The position numbers were made by a program, and so were the translations under genes. A model generated the notes under the pieces. It did not search any database. It was not told where the DNA came from and worked only from the letters and a program-made list of their open reading frames with translations. DNA of 64,000 bases from an uncultured Gemmatimonadales bacterium (lineage in GTDB: Bacteria; Gemmatimonadota; Gemmatimonadetes; Gemmatimonadales; GWC2-71-9), in the NCBI GenBank assembly GCA_963771275.1, contig CAVYSW010000003.1, positions 1,811,864 through 1,875,863 of the forward strand, in the 5' to 3' direction. Numbering within the stretch: the stretch's first letter is position 1; each line of letters opens with the position of its first letter. This document shows positions 56,585 to 61,516 of this stretch, one piece after another.

Positions 56585-57835
56585 TCAACTCTCGGTCACG
56601 GTGGATTGAGCGAGCAGGAACGCGAACACCTTCTCCTCGGTGATCGTCTGCTCCAACTCCTTGAGTCGCTTCGCTTTCTGCAGTTCCGCGTACGCCTGGC
56701 CCGGCTCCACGCCGCGCCGCTTGGCGATCTCCTCGACCCGCTGATCGAGGTCCGCTTCCGTGGCCTTCAGGCCGTTTGCCTTGGCGACGTGGTCCAGCAC
56801 GAGGTCGCGCCGGACCTGGGACTCGGCCAGGGTGCGGAACTCGTTGGCGAACGTCTCGAGCCGCTCGTCCGGGATGCTGTAGGCCTGGGCGTAGGCCCCG
56901 ATCAGCCGGTCGGTGAGCGCGCGCGGGGCGGGGACGCTGTTGGCCGTTACGATCTGCTCGATCAGCTGGCGCCGCACCCCAGCGTCCGCCTCGCGGCGCG
57001 CTTCCTGCTCGAGGTCGGCGCGCACCGCCCGGCGGGCGGCGTCGAGCGAGTCGAAGTCGCCGATCTGCCGAGCGAACGCGTCATCGAGAGGCGGGAGGTT
57101 CTGGCGCTTCACCTCCTGTACGGTGATCTGCACGTGGCGGGTCTGGCCGCGCTTGGTCTCGTCGGCGAAGTCGTCCGGGAATCTCACGTCGGCCTCGCCG
57201 GTCTGACCCGGGAGGAGCCGCATGATCTGGTCTTCGACGTCCGGGATGGCCTGGCCTTGCCCGAGCACCACGCGATACTGCTTGGCCTCCTGGGGCGTTC
57301 CGTCGGTCACGGTCGCCAGACTCACGGCCGCCAGGTCACCGGGCTTGGGCGCCTCCCCTTCGACCGGCACCCAGGCGGCCTGCTGGCGCCGCAGCTCGTC
57401 GAGCTGGCCTTCCACCATCTCGTCCGTCACCGGGCGCAGCGCCTGCGTGAGCTTGAAGCCCCCCAACCGGTCGAGGGTCAGCTCCGGCCTGAGCTCGACA
57501 TGCAGCTCGAACGTGAGCGGGGCCCCCGTCTCGAACTTGAGATCGTGCACGTGCGGGTCGGCGATGGGGTCGAGCTTTTCCTGCTCCAGGGTCGCCTTCC
57601 AACCCTCGCCGATCACTTCGCGCAGCACCTGCTCGCGAATCACGTCCTGGTACTTCTTGCGGACCACCGCGAGGGGCGCCTTGCCCTGACGGAAGCCGGG
57701 CAGCCGGGCGCGTCTGGCGAGATCTCGGGCCGCGTGCACCTCGGCCTGCTCCACCCGGTCGGGGGTGATCTCGATCCGGAAGCTCGCCTCGCCGGGCTGC
57801 TCCTTGGACTTGGTAACCTGAATGCCGTCAACCAT
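56585..57835 (-). CDS. tig: Trigger factor
   Basis: PGFRQGKAP ribosome-binding motif; upstream of clpP. Confidence 0.93.
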
Positions 57836-58053
57836 CTGGGTTCGTTAGACCTCCGAGCCGAGAAAGCTAATCCCGATTACCGGGTGGTGGCAGGATGCGG
57901 GGGGGTGGGGGGGCGCGGCCGAATGCCACCCCCACGCACTGAACTGGGTACGTCCCGTCCCCCCGACTGGTCCACCTTGGCCTCGCCAGCGGCACTCGCG
58001 TTGTTGGGTGTCGCGTCGCACCTCCGGTCCCGCCAGCGTGCCAGAACGTGGTA

Positions 58054-58137
58054 GCGGGTGTGGTGGAAGCGGCAGACACGAATCGCTCGCAACGGTTTGG
58101 GCGTGAGCCCGTGTGGGTTCGCATCCCACCACCCGCA
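58054..58137 (+). tRNA. tRNA with Leu-type (class II) body and CGC (Ala) anticodon
   Basis: Acceptor GCGGGTG/CACCCGC, D arm GTG-GAAGCGGCAGA-CAC, anticodon arm AATCG-CTCGCAA-CGGTT, variable arm GGGC-GTGA-GCCC, T arm GTGGG-TTCGCAT-CCCAC, A73. Confidence 0.85.
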
Positions 58138-58146
58138 CCCTGGCTG

Positions 58147-58176
58147 TTGCACGGGAAGCTCAGCCGAGGCTATACT
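58147..58176 (+). promoter_or_regulatory. Sigma70-like promoter with overlapping palindrome
   Basis: TTGCAC, 18 bp, TATACT; GCCGAG..CTCGGC inverted repeat straddles the -10 box. Confidence 0.5.
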
Positions 58177-58220
58177 CGGCGTACGTTGCGAGCGGTTCGC
58201 GTGGCACTTTCCGCCATGCC

Positions 58221-58251
58221 AAAGGTCGCGGGCCTGGAGCCCGCGACCTTT
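58221..58251. terminator. Perfect 13-bp hairpin, possibly a bidirectional terminator
   Basis: AAAGGTCGCGGGC-CTGGA-GCCCGCGACCTTT. Confidence 0.55.
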
Positions 58252-58570
58252 CCGTTGTGTGCCCCGTTGGATGCCGACGTCGAGGAAAAGTCGTCGGGGG
58301 CGTCAGCGGCGGTCAGGGCGCCGGCACCGGGCTCAACATCACCCCGGAGACGCCAGTGGCCGTCACGTTCTGGACGATCGTGCCGGGCTCAAACACGAGG
58401 CAGGCCGCGTTGGTCGTGCCATCCTCGTTGGCCGTGACCTCGAATGTCCGTCTTGAGACCGGTTTGCGCGCCGGGGTGAGTGCGACCGAAGGGACGCGAC
58501 GTGAAGCAGAGCGAGCGGCCTCAACCGCGCAGCTCAACCCTCACGTCACGGGCTGACCCACAGGATTAAG

Positions 58571-59310
58571 TCACGAATGGGTGAGTGGCGGCGGCGAAGC
58601 GTCAGGCCCGTCTTGCTTCTCCACCCGGCGGAGGACACGATGCGCAGCCTTGGCCACGAGCTTCTTCGCCGACTCGGCCTTCTCGCCTTCAAGAACGTCA
58701 CGCCGAAGCACCTCGGTGATTAGAACGCCGCGCACTTGGTCCTCGTCAATGCGCGTGTCAGGAGAGATACGGCGAAGCTCCCTGCGCAGGACGTCTGTGA
58801 CGGGCTCCGACATGATCAAAGCGCCGAGCGTGAAGCGACTGAGAGCCTGCCGTTGCTGGAAGTACTCTCCGAGGCGAGCCTTCTGCCACCCCTCCTTGCA
58901 GAGCAGCCAGACGATCTTCCAGATCGCCATCCTTTCGATGGCTGAGCTCGGACAGGTTGAACTCGACGACGAGTTCCTGCTCGATGGGCTTCGTGAAGTT
59001 GACTTTGTAAGCGCGCCAGACGAGTCCGTTGGTGAGGGCCACCCACTCGCATCCCTGGTTGCTCGCGTAATCGACCGCCTGCTTCACATGCTGGTCCTTA
59101 AGGTCGAGTCCGATGGCCTTCACCTCGATCAGCAGGGCGAGCGCGCCATCGATCTTGATTGCCAGGTCGCAGAACGTGCCGCGGATGGCATGTTCCGAGG
59201 TAATCTCGGTGTACTTGTCGTAGCCGAAGAGCTCGTGTAGCAGGTCCATCACGATGATGACTGTGTCGGACTCGTTGGCGTCCCGTGCACGAGCGGCGTC
59301 CAGGATCGGT
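58571..59310 (-). pseudogene. HsdR N-terminal-like PD-(D/E)xK nuclease protein, 5'-truncated and frameshifted near 58917
   Basis: NESDT, FGYD, CDLAI, IEVKA, QAVDYA, LTNG.VW; continues in a second frame; no start codon before PILDAARARD. Confidence 0.7.
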
Positions 59311-59438: not shown

Positions 59439-61373
59439 TCAGTATCGCCAGTCCTGTGACGCTTCAGCGTTGGGGCATTGCGCGCCCAGTTCCGCCAGAA
59501 ACGGACTGGCAATGGTGCGAGCAACTCCCCTCCCTACCCACTTCCCAAGCGGGATGCCGGCCACCCTCGCATCAGCCACGTTGGAAGTCTGGTACTTGGA
59601 CAGCACCACGGTCTCCGTTGCACGTGTCAGTCCAACATACAAGACGCGTCGCTGCTCCTCGAAGTGCTCGCGGGCCGCTGCATCGGCAAGTTTCGTTCGA
59701 GGATGAACCGGGATCAGGCCGTCAACGAGTCCCGCAATCACCACCATCTTGACCGTGAGGCCCTTCGATTTGTGAAGGCTCATCAAACGCACGTATGGCG
59801 CGGTCAGCGGAACCTCGGGTGCGGCAACTTGCTTGCGGACTGATGCGACGAAATCACGCAGCGAGATCTCCACGCTCTCAAGCTCCAGGACTCTTTCAGC
59901 CGCCGCGCGCAATCCGGATAGGGCTGGAATGTCCGCCGGCAGGACGCGATCGATGATGCCCTCGAGTCCCTCCCCGTGCGCCTGGGCTTCGCCTAGGGCT
60001 TCCGTGAGTTCATCCCACTTAGCGGCAATGTCCCCAATCTGTCGCAGAGGTGTCCGCCCGTCCTTCAGACGCTCTAACACGTCCTTTACAGTTAGGCCGT
60101 CGTTCCTAGCCAAGGCCAAGATGCGTCGATAGGTTGGCCTGCGCTGTGTGCTGTGATCGAGGGCAAGCCATGCCCGCAGCGCCATCCGATCATCCGGATC
60201 GGCAAGGAGCGTCAGGAGGGTGATAGCCCGCTTCGCCTCATCGGTGTCAAATGCCTCTTCGGTGAAGTAGGAGTGCGCGTCGTAGCCATTCCGAACAAGG
60301 TGATCCCGCAGGCCATACGCGATCTTACGCCAGTTTGTCAGGACCAGAACATCACCCGGACTTACCCGGCCGGAATCCAGTCGAGATTGAATGAAGTCCG
60401 TCAGCCCCTCAGCTTCCGCCTCCATAGTCTGGAACATGACATTGTGTACTTCCCCCATCGGCCGTGTCGGATCAGGCGCCAGCGCGGGCTTCGCTCGTCC
60501 TGGATTCCGTTCAATCAACGCCTGCGCCATCGCAACGACCTGCTGGGGGCAACGATGGCAGGTGAGAAGTCGCGCATCCTCGTCCGCGGGGTAGTCCCTG
60601 ATCCCAGCGGGGTGAGCGTTTCGCAAACTGACGTAGATTGACTGGTCATCGTCTCCGATAATCGCAAGTTGCCCCCGGCCCTGTCGCAGGCTCTCACGAG
60701 CAAGGAGGGCTATCAGTTCCTGATCCGCTCTGTTGAGGTCCTGGTACTCGTCCACCAGGACGTGGTCGAACCGGGCAAGTTCTTCGACCAGAGGATTCTG
60801 TATAAGGAACTCGCGTGCGATGGGGACCAACTGCCCCAAGAACATGCACTGATGCCAACGCAGCGTCTCGAGAAGGGCATCTTGAAAGGCCTGTGGTAGG
60901 CCCGGCGCTGGTGCGCCGGGAGGGTCGCTAGCCAGTGTGGCCCAAGCGCACTCGTATTGGGTCCTCAATCGCCGACGCTCATAGAAGGTGCCGAAGTCAC
61001 CATCCAGGTCTTTGAGGAGTATGTCCAGCTCGAAGTTCGCGAGAATGCGCGGAACGTACCCCGTCAAACGAAACACCTCTTCCCGGGCTAGAAGCGAGAA
61101 GCAAAGTGCGTGGAGTGTTGTCGCTGTGAGTCGTTCCGCGTTCGGCACCTCTGGTCTTGCCAGGCTGCCTCTTAGATCGTCCGCAGCGGTCCGAGTCAGG
61201 GTCACAACGAGGAGTCGCTCAGGCGGGACTTGCTCGACTTCCAGAAGACGCTGAACCCGGCGCATCAGCGCGCGAGTCTTGCCTGTTCCGGGACCTGCCA
61301 AGCATCGAATGCGGGGTAGTGCCGAAGCGGCGAAGGTGTGGGCATCGCCCACGAGATCGTCATCCCAAGCCAC
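59439..61373 (-). CDS. UvrD/Rep-family SF1 helicase
   Basis: AGPGTGKT, TLHA, DEYQD, GDDDQSIY, HKSKGL, YVGLTRA; GTG start inferred. Confidence 0.9.
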   Translation of the reverse strand: MAWDDDLVGDAHTFAASALPRIRCLAGPGTGKTRALMRRVQRLLEVEQVPPERLLVVTLTRTAADDLRGSLARPEVPNAERLTATTLHALCFSLLAREEVFRLTGYVPRILANFELDILLKDLDGDFGTFYERRRLRTQYECAWATLASDPPGAPAPGLPQAFQDALLETLRWHQCMFLGQLVPIAREFLIQNPLVEELARFDHVLVDEYQDLNRADQELIALLARESLRQGRGQLAIIGDDDQSIYVSLRNAHPAGIRDYPADEDARLLTCHRCPQQVVAMAQALIERNPGRAKPALAPDPTRPMGEVHNVMFQTMEAEAEGLTDFIQSRLDSGRVSPGDVLVLTNWRKIAYGLRDHLVRNGYDAHSYFTEEAFDTDEAKRAITLLTLLADPDDRMALRAWLALDHSTQRRPTYRRILALARNDGLTVKDVLERLKDGRTPLRQIGDIAAKWDELTEALGEAQAHGEGLEGIIDRVLPADIPALSGLRAAAERVLELESVEISLRDFVASVRKQVAAPEVPLTAPYVRLMSLHKSKGLTVKMVVIAGLVDGLIPVHPRTKLADAAAREHFEEQRRVLYVGLTRATETVVLSKYQTSNVADARVAGIPLGKWVGRGVARTIASPFLAELGAQCPNAEASQDWRY

Positions 61374-61516
61374 CGCAGCTCCTCCCGTGCTTCGATGAAG
61401 TGGTCCATGTACCACCCACCACGAACGAAAGGGAGGGCACTTTGGGCACACAAGCCCGAGTCTGCGTCATGATTCCAAGATGCGGAAGGGCCCTAACTCG
61501 TTACATCGCTTTCCAG

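Follow-up and report, generated by a model that had tools for sequence, protein, structure and literature searches.

The DNA stretch analyzed here (the window) comprises 64,000 nt of a Gemmatimonadales genome and corresponds to C3:1811864-1875863 of a source assembly of 3.86 Mb, with 70% GC, in 11 contigs. ARAGORN calls a single tRNA in the window, at 58054-58139 (+), with the anticodon CGC. A preliminary description of this gene, made from the sequence alone, had presented it as an island-borne tRNA with the body of a tRNA-Leu and the anticodon of a tRNA-Ala, which might place leucine at GCG codons. We found that the decisive feature of the locus, missed in that description, lies ~46 nt downstream: a small RNA, with its own predicted promoter, that covaries with the tRNA-like RNA as an antisense partner. 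Over its first 12-17 nt, this small RNA is antisense to tRNA positions 22/23-38, a relationship that first became apparent in an alignment of 13 modules.

We annotate the tRNA-like gene as a leucine-type class II RNA (58054..58139, +), based on ARAGORN, Rfam and covariation; tRNA positions 1-73 correspond to 58054-58137 and are followed by encoded C74 and C75. The Rfam tRNA model (RF00005) scored 44 bits at 58054-58137 (gathering score 29; E 2.8e-8) in an E-value-mode search of the region, which apart from the tRNA returned chance matches, with none for the small RNA and no T-box; a gathering-mode search of the whole window returned 0 matches, presumably because of the speed filters. The acceptor stem (GCGGGTG/CACCCGC) has 7 bp, including G3-C70, and is followed by U8, G9, a 3-bp D stem, and A14, A15, G18, G19, A20a, G21 and A22. 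The 5-bp anticodon stem (AATCG/CGGTT, in which one pair is U-G) carries the loop CTCGCAA (58086-58092, +), with the anticodon CGC at 58088-58090. The variable region of 15 nt forms a 4-bp stem (GGGC/GCCC) with the loop GTGA, and the T arm reads GTGGG-TTCGCAT-CCCAC, with C at position 58. On the 3' side, A73 is followed by CC and then T, so that CCA is not encoded. All structural statements of the preliminary description (an intact 7/5 cloverleaf, the loop CT-CGC-AA, a long variable arm, the D-arm layout and A73) are correct on our reading of the sequence, as are C58 in the T loop and the lack of an encoded CCA. The loop sequence itself is well supported, since 58075-58239, loop included, is identical in a 165-nt public contig (run X1), and 58083-58119 is unchanged in the contig of a ~92%-identical relative (X2, record 2). 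Position 58122 (tRNA position 58) is C in the window genome and A in every other compared contig; thus, C58 is private to the window genome.

The tRNA-like gene is part of a module of ~300 nt, the layout of which (leader, tRNA-like gene, promoter, and a small RNA of ~75 nt with two hairpins) is constant in alignments of 13 and then 50 modules. In order, the modules contain a -10-like box, a ~70-nt leader starting GCCAG or GCGGC, the tRNA ending in A73-C74-C75, a spacer of ~10-25 nt, a promoter (P2) and, after a gap of ~9-11 nt, the small RNA, made up of a 12-nt seed, which is variable, and two hairpins, one of 7 bp and a terminator-like one of 13 bp. The P2 consensus is TTGAC(T)-N17/18-TAnnnT, with the TTG of the -35 element and the A of the -10 element invariant or at least 90% conserved in the 50 modules. 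In the window, P2 is predicted at 58147..58176 (+; TTGCAC, an 18-nt spacer, TATACT), below the threshold of a consensus scan. The ~75-nt small RNA is placed at 58183..58259 (+), with its probable start at the A of TAC, its seed at 58186-58197 (extended to 58202), hairpin 1 at 58199-58219 (+) and the terminator-like hairpin, followed by a tail, at 58221-58251 (+), both hairpins being supported by covariation. The small RNA follows the tRNA 3' end at a distance of ~46 nt, with no terminator in that gap. The window small RNA folds with -41.6 kcal/mol (z -3.87; 0/200 shuffles as good), and its hairpins covary (helix 6 with 3 pairs changed on both sides and helix 7 with 11/13). We rejected a coding role for it: because there is a 1-nt indel (in the terminator loop) relative to the ortholog in the same-genus genome G005, and because loop lengths vary freely, the small RNA is non-coding. 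The small RNA and its tRNA-like partner are a structured family that is absent from Rfam 15.

Read as its reverse complement, the 12-nt core of the seed matches tRNA positions 27-38, which run from the 5' strand of the anticodon stem through the entire anticodon loop. The window arm AATCG-CTCGCAA and its seed TTGCGAGCGGTT are paired at 12/12 positions, one of them as U-G. The longer address region (58076..58092, +), which spans tRNA positions 22-38 (the D-stem 3' strand, G26, the anticodon-stem 5' strand and the whole anticodon loop), can pair with 58186-58202 over 17 consecutive positions, counting one U-G and one A-C (position 24). A global pattern scan, with one genome taken per species, gave at least 120 loci; among the 70 listed matches with an intact T arm, the best seed match out of 12, at a fixed distance downstream, was 12 in 33, 11 in 10, 10 in 8, 9 in 15, 8 in 2 and 7 in 2. 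The opposite-strand control among the listed matches peaked at 9 and reached 11 only twice.

The arm and the seed change together. An alignment of 50 modules, which is circular in this respect as its members were picked for at least 10/12 seed matches, gave an intermolecular helix of 12 pairs, 10 of them changed on both sides, with 92.7% of cells paired. For the whole structure, 0/500 shuffles scored as high, in tests inflated by related sequences, and slid controls were ~41% paired. Three sets are free of this selection bias, namely position 26, the first 13 modules and the modules found by a covariance model, which was itself built from NGC loops. Position 26 and the base after the seed are GC in 21 of the 50 modules, AU in 16, CG in 2, GU in 2, UA in 1 and other in 8, and the three positions beyond 26 pair invariantly with GCG. 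The whole-module covariance model was run on 121 genomes of the order; 46 matches of at least 93.9 bits were re-examined, and removal of one ordinary tRNA-Leu(UAA) near the threshold left 45 modules. The seed match in these modules is 12/12 in 36, 11/12 in 7, 10 in one and 8 in one, and 26/45 have at least 16/17 pairs across positions 22-38. Non-Watson-Crick oppositions in the 12-nt core of the model-found modules are G-U 25 times and A-C 5 times, an excess that argues for same-strand RNA-RNA pairing rather than a DNA inverted repeat.

The pairing is also specific to each module. The cognate small RNA matches on average 11.63/12 positions, compared to 8.50 for non-cognate small RNAs, and is the best match in 41/43 modules. 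When all five modules of the window genome were compared with one another (5x5), cognate duplex energies were -27 to -32 kcal/mol, compared to -8 to -20 kcal/mol for non-cognate pairs, in 4/5 modules; the fifth module (C3:143434) is decayed on both sides. Cofolding of the window pair yields a gain of 19.5 kcal/mol over the separate folds. Because arm and seed change together across copies and genomes, each tRNA-like RNA has a private partner, and we consider that the antisense pairing is very probably real. A register-shifted arrangement occurs at L036 (identical to L067), where the small-RNA 5' end ACGAA-GTGCCAA pairs with the loop and the 3' strand of the stem (positions 32-43).

The body of the tRNA-like RNA is that of a bacterial tRNA-Leu, as had been proposed. 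In its D arm, its variable arm and A73, this body agrees with the tRNA-Leu genes of the same genome and departs from the Ser, Tyr, Sec and Ala genes there; the resemblance to the genome's tRNA-Leu(CAG) is close and extends over the cloverleaf, the D and long variable arms, the T arm and A73, and the class II marks (7/5 stems, a long variable arm, a 3-bp D stem, A14/A15/G18/G19 and A73) are all present. In this GC-rich set, comparison with the genome's tRNAs by global identity did not discriminate. The differences from tRNA-Leu are that a leucine anticodon (NAG or YAA) is found neither in the window, which has CGC, nor in any homolog (0/45), and that the family has encoded C74-C75 with a complementary leader, frequent loss of U33 and a private antisense RNA. 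The RNA also differs from tRNA-Ala. The G3:U70 pair, the mark for alanyl-tRNA synthetase (AlaRS), is absent from the window copy, as the preliminary description had pointed out, and from its relatives (the pair 3-70 in 49 relatives is GC in 21, UA in 14, CG in 13 and CA in 1, with G:U in 0/49); moreover, its variable region of 15 nt is unlike the short variable loop of tRNA-Ala, for which the genome has three canonical genes of 73-74 nt. We considered a second leucyl-tRNA synthetase (LeuRS) or dedicated partner enzyme and rejected it, as the genome has one LeuRS gene, plus a weak match in another synthetase-sized open reading frame (ORF). From its sequence, the tRNA body probably keeps every mark for tRNA handling, leucylation included (A73, A14, A15, G18, G19 and the long arm).

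Across the family, the body is constant and the anticodon is variable. Covariation in 49-50 relatives supports the cloverleaf, and 99% of cells are paired in its acceptor, variable and T stems. U8, A14, A15, G18, G19, G53, C56, C61 and A73 are invariant in the 50 modules, and U54, U55, G57 and A58 are conserved in at least 90%. The 45 model-found modules have nine anticodon triplets (CGC 16, CAC 9, GGC 5, GTC 4, CTC 3, GAC 3, AGC 3, GGT 1, GCG 1), with Val, Asp, Glu, Thr and Arg types among them; alanine triplets are the commonest, and the triplet is non-alanine in 21/45. C36 is found in 43/45 and A37 in 45/45, position 34 is free, and position 33 is U in 31/45 and C in 14/45. Since homologs carry such varied triplets, Ala-to-Leu decoding is not selected as such, in disagreement with the earlier emphasis on the alanine anticodon. 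The statement that GCG is among the commonest codons does stand: in 2416 codons from five Pfam-supported genes, GCG is the third most used codon, at 52 per 1000 (with GAG at 60, GCC 49, GAC 48, GTG 36 and GTC 34), and the triplets of the family read six of the twelve commonest codons.

Some members depart from a standard tRNA in the T arm. About 8 members, including the G005 ortholog, have a structured insertion of 37-80 nt in the T loop, between U55 and C56, with the seed still matching, and U55C variants also occur. The insertions are found in L002 (G005; about 585-645), L029, L041, L055, L074, L083, L087 and L136; they often begin with TGAGC, hold a hairpin and end in ...GCGCG, and they look related across paralog lineages. 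A search of six of these loci against Rfam gave 0 matches at E up to 0.1. Such an insert might be an additional arm, something akin to an intron, or a small mobile sequence. The loss of U33 and the T-loop insertions argue against strong selection for ribosomal decoding; efficient decoding would be selected at most weakly. We read the tRNA body as being strongly selected for recognition by tRNA-handling proteins, with the anticodon arm as an address, and the alanine anticodon is one setting of this variable small-RNA address, not a conserved decoding specificity.

The upstream part of the module is also conserved. The leader (57985..58053, +; ~70 nt) begins GCCAGCGG, is conserved across modules and contains, at 58000-58018 (+), a degenerate seed-like element followed by GCGTC; this combination is found at leader positions -55 to -45 in 36/58 modules. 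A candidate -10 box (CACCTT, 57973..57978, +) of a putative upstream promoter P1 aligns with the TAnnnT-like boxes of other modules (TACCGT, TATCAT, TAGAAT and others), which lie 7-8 nt before the conserved leader start; it was missed by the consensus scan. That promoter/terminator scan of 57800-58400 found 0 promoters and 1 unrelated minus-strand terminator-like site. The earlier observation that no upstream promoter is visible is therefore right for a consensus scan, but the family alignment gives a conserved -10-like box ~75 nt upstream. At the other end of the leader, positions -3 to -1 (GGU) are able to pair with A73-C74-C75 in 37/50 modules; the window copy, with an additional A at -1, forms 0 such pairs. 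C74-C75 are encoded in the tRNA-like family but not in the canonical tRNAs of the genome. We also compared leaders with anticodon arms: complementarity to the cognate arm averaged 8.86 of 12, compared to 8.46 for non-cognate arms (permutation p 0.002), a weak preference for which relatedness could be the explanation. Leader-arm pairing as a second antisense interaction was rejected on account of this weak specificity. In alignments of leader plus tRNA, the cloverleaf is the sole RNAalifold prediction. The module differs from a T-box leader, as the pairing extends over 12-17 nt, including stem strands, with no conserved UGGN and no conserved downstream gene; the gene downstream of the window module is on the other strand.

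To place the window copy among its relatives, we examined the tRNA genes of the whole genome. ARAGORN reports a normal tRNA set, including five tRNA-Leu and three canonical tRNA-Ala genes (one with CGC), as well as five odd leucine-like genes of 86-89 nt. These are C3:117492 (CGC), C3:143434 (CGC, with a C3-A70 mismatch), the window copy at 58054 (CGC), C9:161273 (GGC, loop GCGGCAC) and C10:82432 (GGT, loop CCGGTAA). By ARAGORN and nhmmer, the five copies are similar over ~340 nt, far beyond the tRNA. The same run gave a tRNA-Sec call at C10:542960 and seven likely false positives of 91-98 nt in which tRNA features are absent (C1:6508, C3:818716, C3:951562, C8:5074, C10:157418, C10:536400 and C10:841877).

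Outside the source genome, BLAST of the window module found homologs in 17/40 relatives (18/41 with the source genome, G000), and eight of these homologs are not ordinary tRNA-Leu, having the ARAGORN anticodon GGC or CGC. Among 80 titled related loci from records found by sequence, 46 are Gemmatimonadota, Gemmatimonadales or Gemmatimonadaceae, and one decayed module comes from a metagenome-assembled genome (MAG) titled Gaiellaceae (L100). In a scan of the phylum with the module model (151 genomes at least 90% complete, with a match at E up to 1e-27), matches were found in 22/151 genomes and 15/82 genera, one of them a tRNA-Leu(UAA) false positive. By family, matches occur in 14/73 (f1), 4/31 (f2), 2/3 (f3) and 1/1 (f5) genomes, and in 0/42 genomes of the other eight families. 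Genome G084 is in both the 121- and the 151-genome tallies and G094 in the former only; neither has a full module among the matches listed, and the analysis uses no sequence of these two genomes, which are flagged as unpublished. Copy number is 1-6 per genome.

Leucine-like tRNAs with mismatched anticodons also occur outside the phylum. Tandem class II genes of 98-99 nt with long variable arms and the anticodons CGC (Ala) and GCC (Gly) are present in alphaproteobacterial MAGs (L026, L139), and class II genes with CGC, UGC or GGC, some with very long variable arms, in Chloroflexota/Dehalococcoidia MAGs (L027, L053, L084) and in Obscuribacterales (L064). No antisense partner was found within 1.5 kb of the genes from Chloroflexota, the alphaproteobacterial MAG and Obscuribacterales, and for this reason we did not count them as members. 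A viral (prophage-type) contig, L190, holds at 401-438 a leucine-like tRNA fragment with the loop CTCGCAA and no matching acceptor 5' strand, possibly the remnant of such a gene at an attachment site.

In the few cases seen, losses are asymmetric: three loci lack the tRNA but keep the small RNA, compared to one locus with the reverse. At the orthologous locus beside tig in G004, the 5' part of the tRNA is lost and the small RNA is kept at 92% identity; at this locus (L003, 1440-1640), the promoter and the start of the leader are joined to the 3' part of a T-loop insert, which is followed by the final 25 nt of the tRNA, and a ~1.1-kb gene is inserted between tig and the module. In G061, the tRNA core is deleted, and the promoter and small RNA are intact. 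In the source genome itself, a sixth small RNA, at C5:15276-15383 (-), is an orphan that has a TTGACT promoter of its own but lacks an upstream tRNA-like gene; its 18-nt seed is identical to that of the C3:117492 module, and the remainder is ~74% identical.

We found no conserved protein partner of the module. When ORFs within 6 kb of the five own copies were compared all against all, one family was shared, by two copies. At 65 modules, only Ser/Thr kinases, which have abundant paralogs, recur (8 loci), and Pfam searches of 44 flanking ORFs at 23 loci gave housekeeping or unknown functions, one YafQ/ParE toxin, one Uma2 and no integrase or transposase. Around the window copy, the upstream neighbors on the minus strand are trigger factor (tig, 56585-57835), ClpP and ClpX, and the module is divergent from tig-clpP-clpX; tig adjoins the module only in the same-genus genome G004. 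Since the flanks (tig, ClpP, ClpX and a UvrD-type helicase) are housekeeping genes, the module is not in an island, contrary to what had been supposed. In the divergent region between tig and the leader, a G-run/C-run inverted repeat (GGGGGGGTGGGGGGGCGCGG...CCACCCCCAC) lies at 57896-57937. The downstream minus-strand neighbors are a small ORF resembling HSDR_N_2 (type I restriction; 58758-59252) and the UvrD-type helicase (59439-61451), which may be a defense-related pair and is not conserved beside other modules.

How might the two RNAs act? We suggest that the single-stranded 5' end of the small RNA would dock on the pre-stacked anticodon loop and then invade the anticodon stem and the D-stem 3' strand, displacing the anticodon-stem 3' strand and the D-stem 5' strand; the resulting duplex of 16-17 bp would abolish the L-shape and block the action of the tRNA-shaped RNA. 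The hypervariable parts recognize only each other, and the sole constant part that a protein could read is the tRNA body, which points to the tRNA-like RNA as the effector and to the small RNA as its private off-switch. On balance, we lean toward the view that the module switches the tRNA-like RNA off, with the small RNA neutralizing a tRNA-shaped effector. The harm might come from leucine being inserted at G-starting codons, which are abundant, from LeuRS or other tRNA enzymes being titrated, or from uncharged tRNA entering the ribosome. Private, orthogonal, multi-copy and patchy pairs with orphan antidotes are the signature of an addiction module, and we therefore favor a toxin-antitoxin-like reading, but we put forward only tentatively that the module is a selfish or regulatory RNA-only pair of this kind. 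Its most specific form, an RNA-only addiction module in which a leucine-chargeable tRNA toxin is set to a common G-starting codon (GCG in the window; GUG, GAC, GAG and GCC in sister copies) and a small RNA antitoxin unzips the anticodon and D arms, is possible but rather doubtful. The idea of a conditionally harmful tRNA is in any case compatible with the data.

Several points weigh against an effector held in check by its antisense RNA. A search of sequencing runs for 57900-58300 listed no RNA run that contains the locus; the promoters, RNA ends, CCA addition, charging and toxicity are all predicted from sequence, and the window copy falls below the consensus promoter scan and lies in a housekeeping context. 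Plasmid records gave no module match, unlike many mobile toxin-antitoxin loci, and viral contigs gave 3 pattern matches, none with the seed. One locus, L065, has the tRNA-like gene but no small RNA, which is unexpected for a strong toxin. The pairing of leader GGU with A73-C74-C75 could interfere with RNase P and tie up the 3' end needed for charging, and C33, the T-loop insertions and the C58 of the window argue against efficient decoding. Furthermore, the fixed C36 and A37 are unaccounted for by pairing alone; they would fit the reading of G-starting codons, or a structural need of the contact between the loop and the small-RNA 5' end. The circular choice of the 50 modules and the inflation of the shuffle tests, mentioned above, count on the same side.

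We considered that the roles might be reversed: the effector would be the small RNA, regulating mRNAs through its 5' seed, and the tRNA-like RNA would titrate it as a sponge. In E. coli, small RNAs are sponged by spacers of tRNA precursors; the Gemmatimonadota small RNA has the layout of a seed regulator (a free 5' end, a hairpin and a terminator hairpin), and orphan small RNAs without a tRNA partner exist, one of which shares its entire seed with a resident small RNA while the rest has diverged. However, seeds are hypervariable among paralogs and orthologs and track the tRNA arm only, so that no conserved mRNA target is possible. The genome-wide search for other targets (at least 15/17 pairs with G-U) gave 96-1785 sites per seed, which is background at 70% GC, and yielded nothing useful beyond the orphan small RNA. 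As this alternative also leaves the strict conservation of the leucine-type body and A73 unexplained, we judge it unlikely. A different possibility is that the module acts in cis: P1 would read through to the shared terminator, pairing of the seed or leader would time folding, RNase P/Z processing or decay, and the tRNA shape would mainly be a processing signal. Such a transcript would be consistent with the missing terminator in the ~46 nt between the tRNA and P2, with the seed-like element and GCGTC at a fixed place in the leader (36/58 modules), and with the ability of leader GGU to pair with A73-C74-C75 (37/50) in a genome whose canonical tRNAs lack encoded CC. Nevertheless, a strong conserved promoter right before the seed points to a separate transcript, orphan small RNAs persist that have a promoter of their own, the leader hardly prefers its cognate arm (8.86 compared to 8.46), and nothing conserved downstream needs release; we would not expect this mechanism to be the answer.

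Two further explanations concern the tRNA-like gene by itself. If it were a free-standing leucine-charged tRNA selected to read GCG, and thus to cause Ala-to-Leu mistranslation as a toxin, decoy or leucine donor, one would expect the leucine-type body, A73 and the absence of G3:U70 that we observe, and GCG is a frequent target (third most used, 52 per 1000). The fixed C36/A37 with a free position 34 is likewise the pattern expected if codon reading matters, and loss of U33 need not be an obstacle, since, according to the accessible part of a review, natural mistranslating tRNAs can lack U33 (PMC11415595). Against these considerations, the triplet is non-alanine in 21/45 and C33 occurs in 14/45, the elbow is weakened by the T-loop insertions, U55C variants and window C58, the genome has a single LeuRS without a dedicated partner enzyme, and the covarying antisense RNA is ignored; we regard this explanation as quite improbable. 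It is far less credible still that the genes are decaying tRNA-Leu pseudogenes or integration-site leftovers without function: compensatory changes keep all helices across the order (99% pairing in the stems of the acceptor, variable and T arms), seed and arm covary strongly, and the 44 flanking ORFs at 23 loci include neither an integrase nor a transposase. Decay is seen in one of the five own copies, with an acceptor mismatch, a broken seed and a leader insertion, and some relatives have deletions or insertions.

The reading that we prefer, a tRNA-shaped effector neutralized by its antisense RNA, can be compared with known systems. The two-RNA module is previously undescribed, as far as searches of the openly available full-text literature show, which gave no account of a tRNA-like gene with a covarying antisense small RNA. 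We know of no RNA-only toxin-antitoxin system in which the toxin is tRNA-shaped. The C4 RNA of phages P1 and P7 is a tRNA-scaffolded or RNase P-processed RNA that presents an antisense loop to the mRNA ribosome-binding sites of the phage's own genes; the Gemmatimonadota module differs in that its only covarying target is a dedicated non-coding small RNA and that it retains a complete tRNA body. Among natural RNAs already described, the allo-tRNAs come nearest, which, in the accessible parts of the reports, are class II tRNAs of soil and sediment bacteria with one identity and diverse non-cognate anticodons (PMC5389517, PMC7609411); the Gemmatimonadota family shares the class II body with the identity of one amino acid, the diverse non-cognate anticodons (nine triplets in 45 modules) and the occurrence in bacteria of soil and sediment. 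However, the acceptor/T stems of allo-tRNAs are 8/4 or 9/3 and their identity is serine (or alanine), as far as the accessible text goes (PMC7609411), whereas the Gemmatimonadota family has 7/5 stems, A73 and a leucine-type D arm, supported by covariation. The authors of the allo-tRNA study raised a link to toxin-antitoxin, namely to neighboring protein systems, and noted some copies with stem-breaking changes, but the accessible part of their account mentions no antisense or complementary partner (PMC5389517), whereas a dedicated covarying small RNA defines the Gemmatimonadota family. With type I and type VIII toxin-antitoxin systems, the latter exemplified by CreT-CreA (PMC10097628, accessible in part), the module shares an adjacent effector and RNA antidote with specific pairing (here covarying over 12-17 bp, with the cognate partner best in 41/43), as well as orthogonal multiple copies, a patchy distribution and orphan antidotes. 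In contrast, the type I target is, in the material available on these systems, the mRNA for a small protein, and CreA acts through Cascade.

Should the pairing function in the way that the covariation suggests, bacteria would encode anti-tRNA small RNAs dedicated to switching a tRNA-shaped RNA on and off directly, by sequence address, and such RNAs would lie outside current textbook tRNA biology. They would explain how a potentially mistranslating tRNA can be carried safely, whether an allo-tRNA or one of the mistranslating tRNAs that have reportedly been described in Streptomyces, and would provide naturally orthogonal RNA-RNA pairs on a tRNA scaffold. Regulated mistranslation, or titration of the tRNA machinery, as a toxin becomes a directly testable question; if the addiction reading is true, mistranslation or poisoning of the tRNA machinery would be a heritable, switchable weapon. 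Even without toxicity, a new structured small-RNA family and its tRNA-like partner would be added for a poorly studied phylum.

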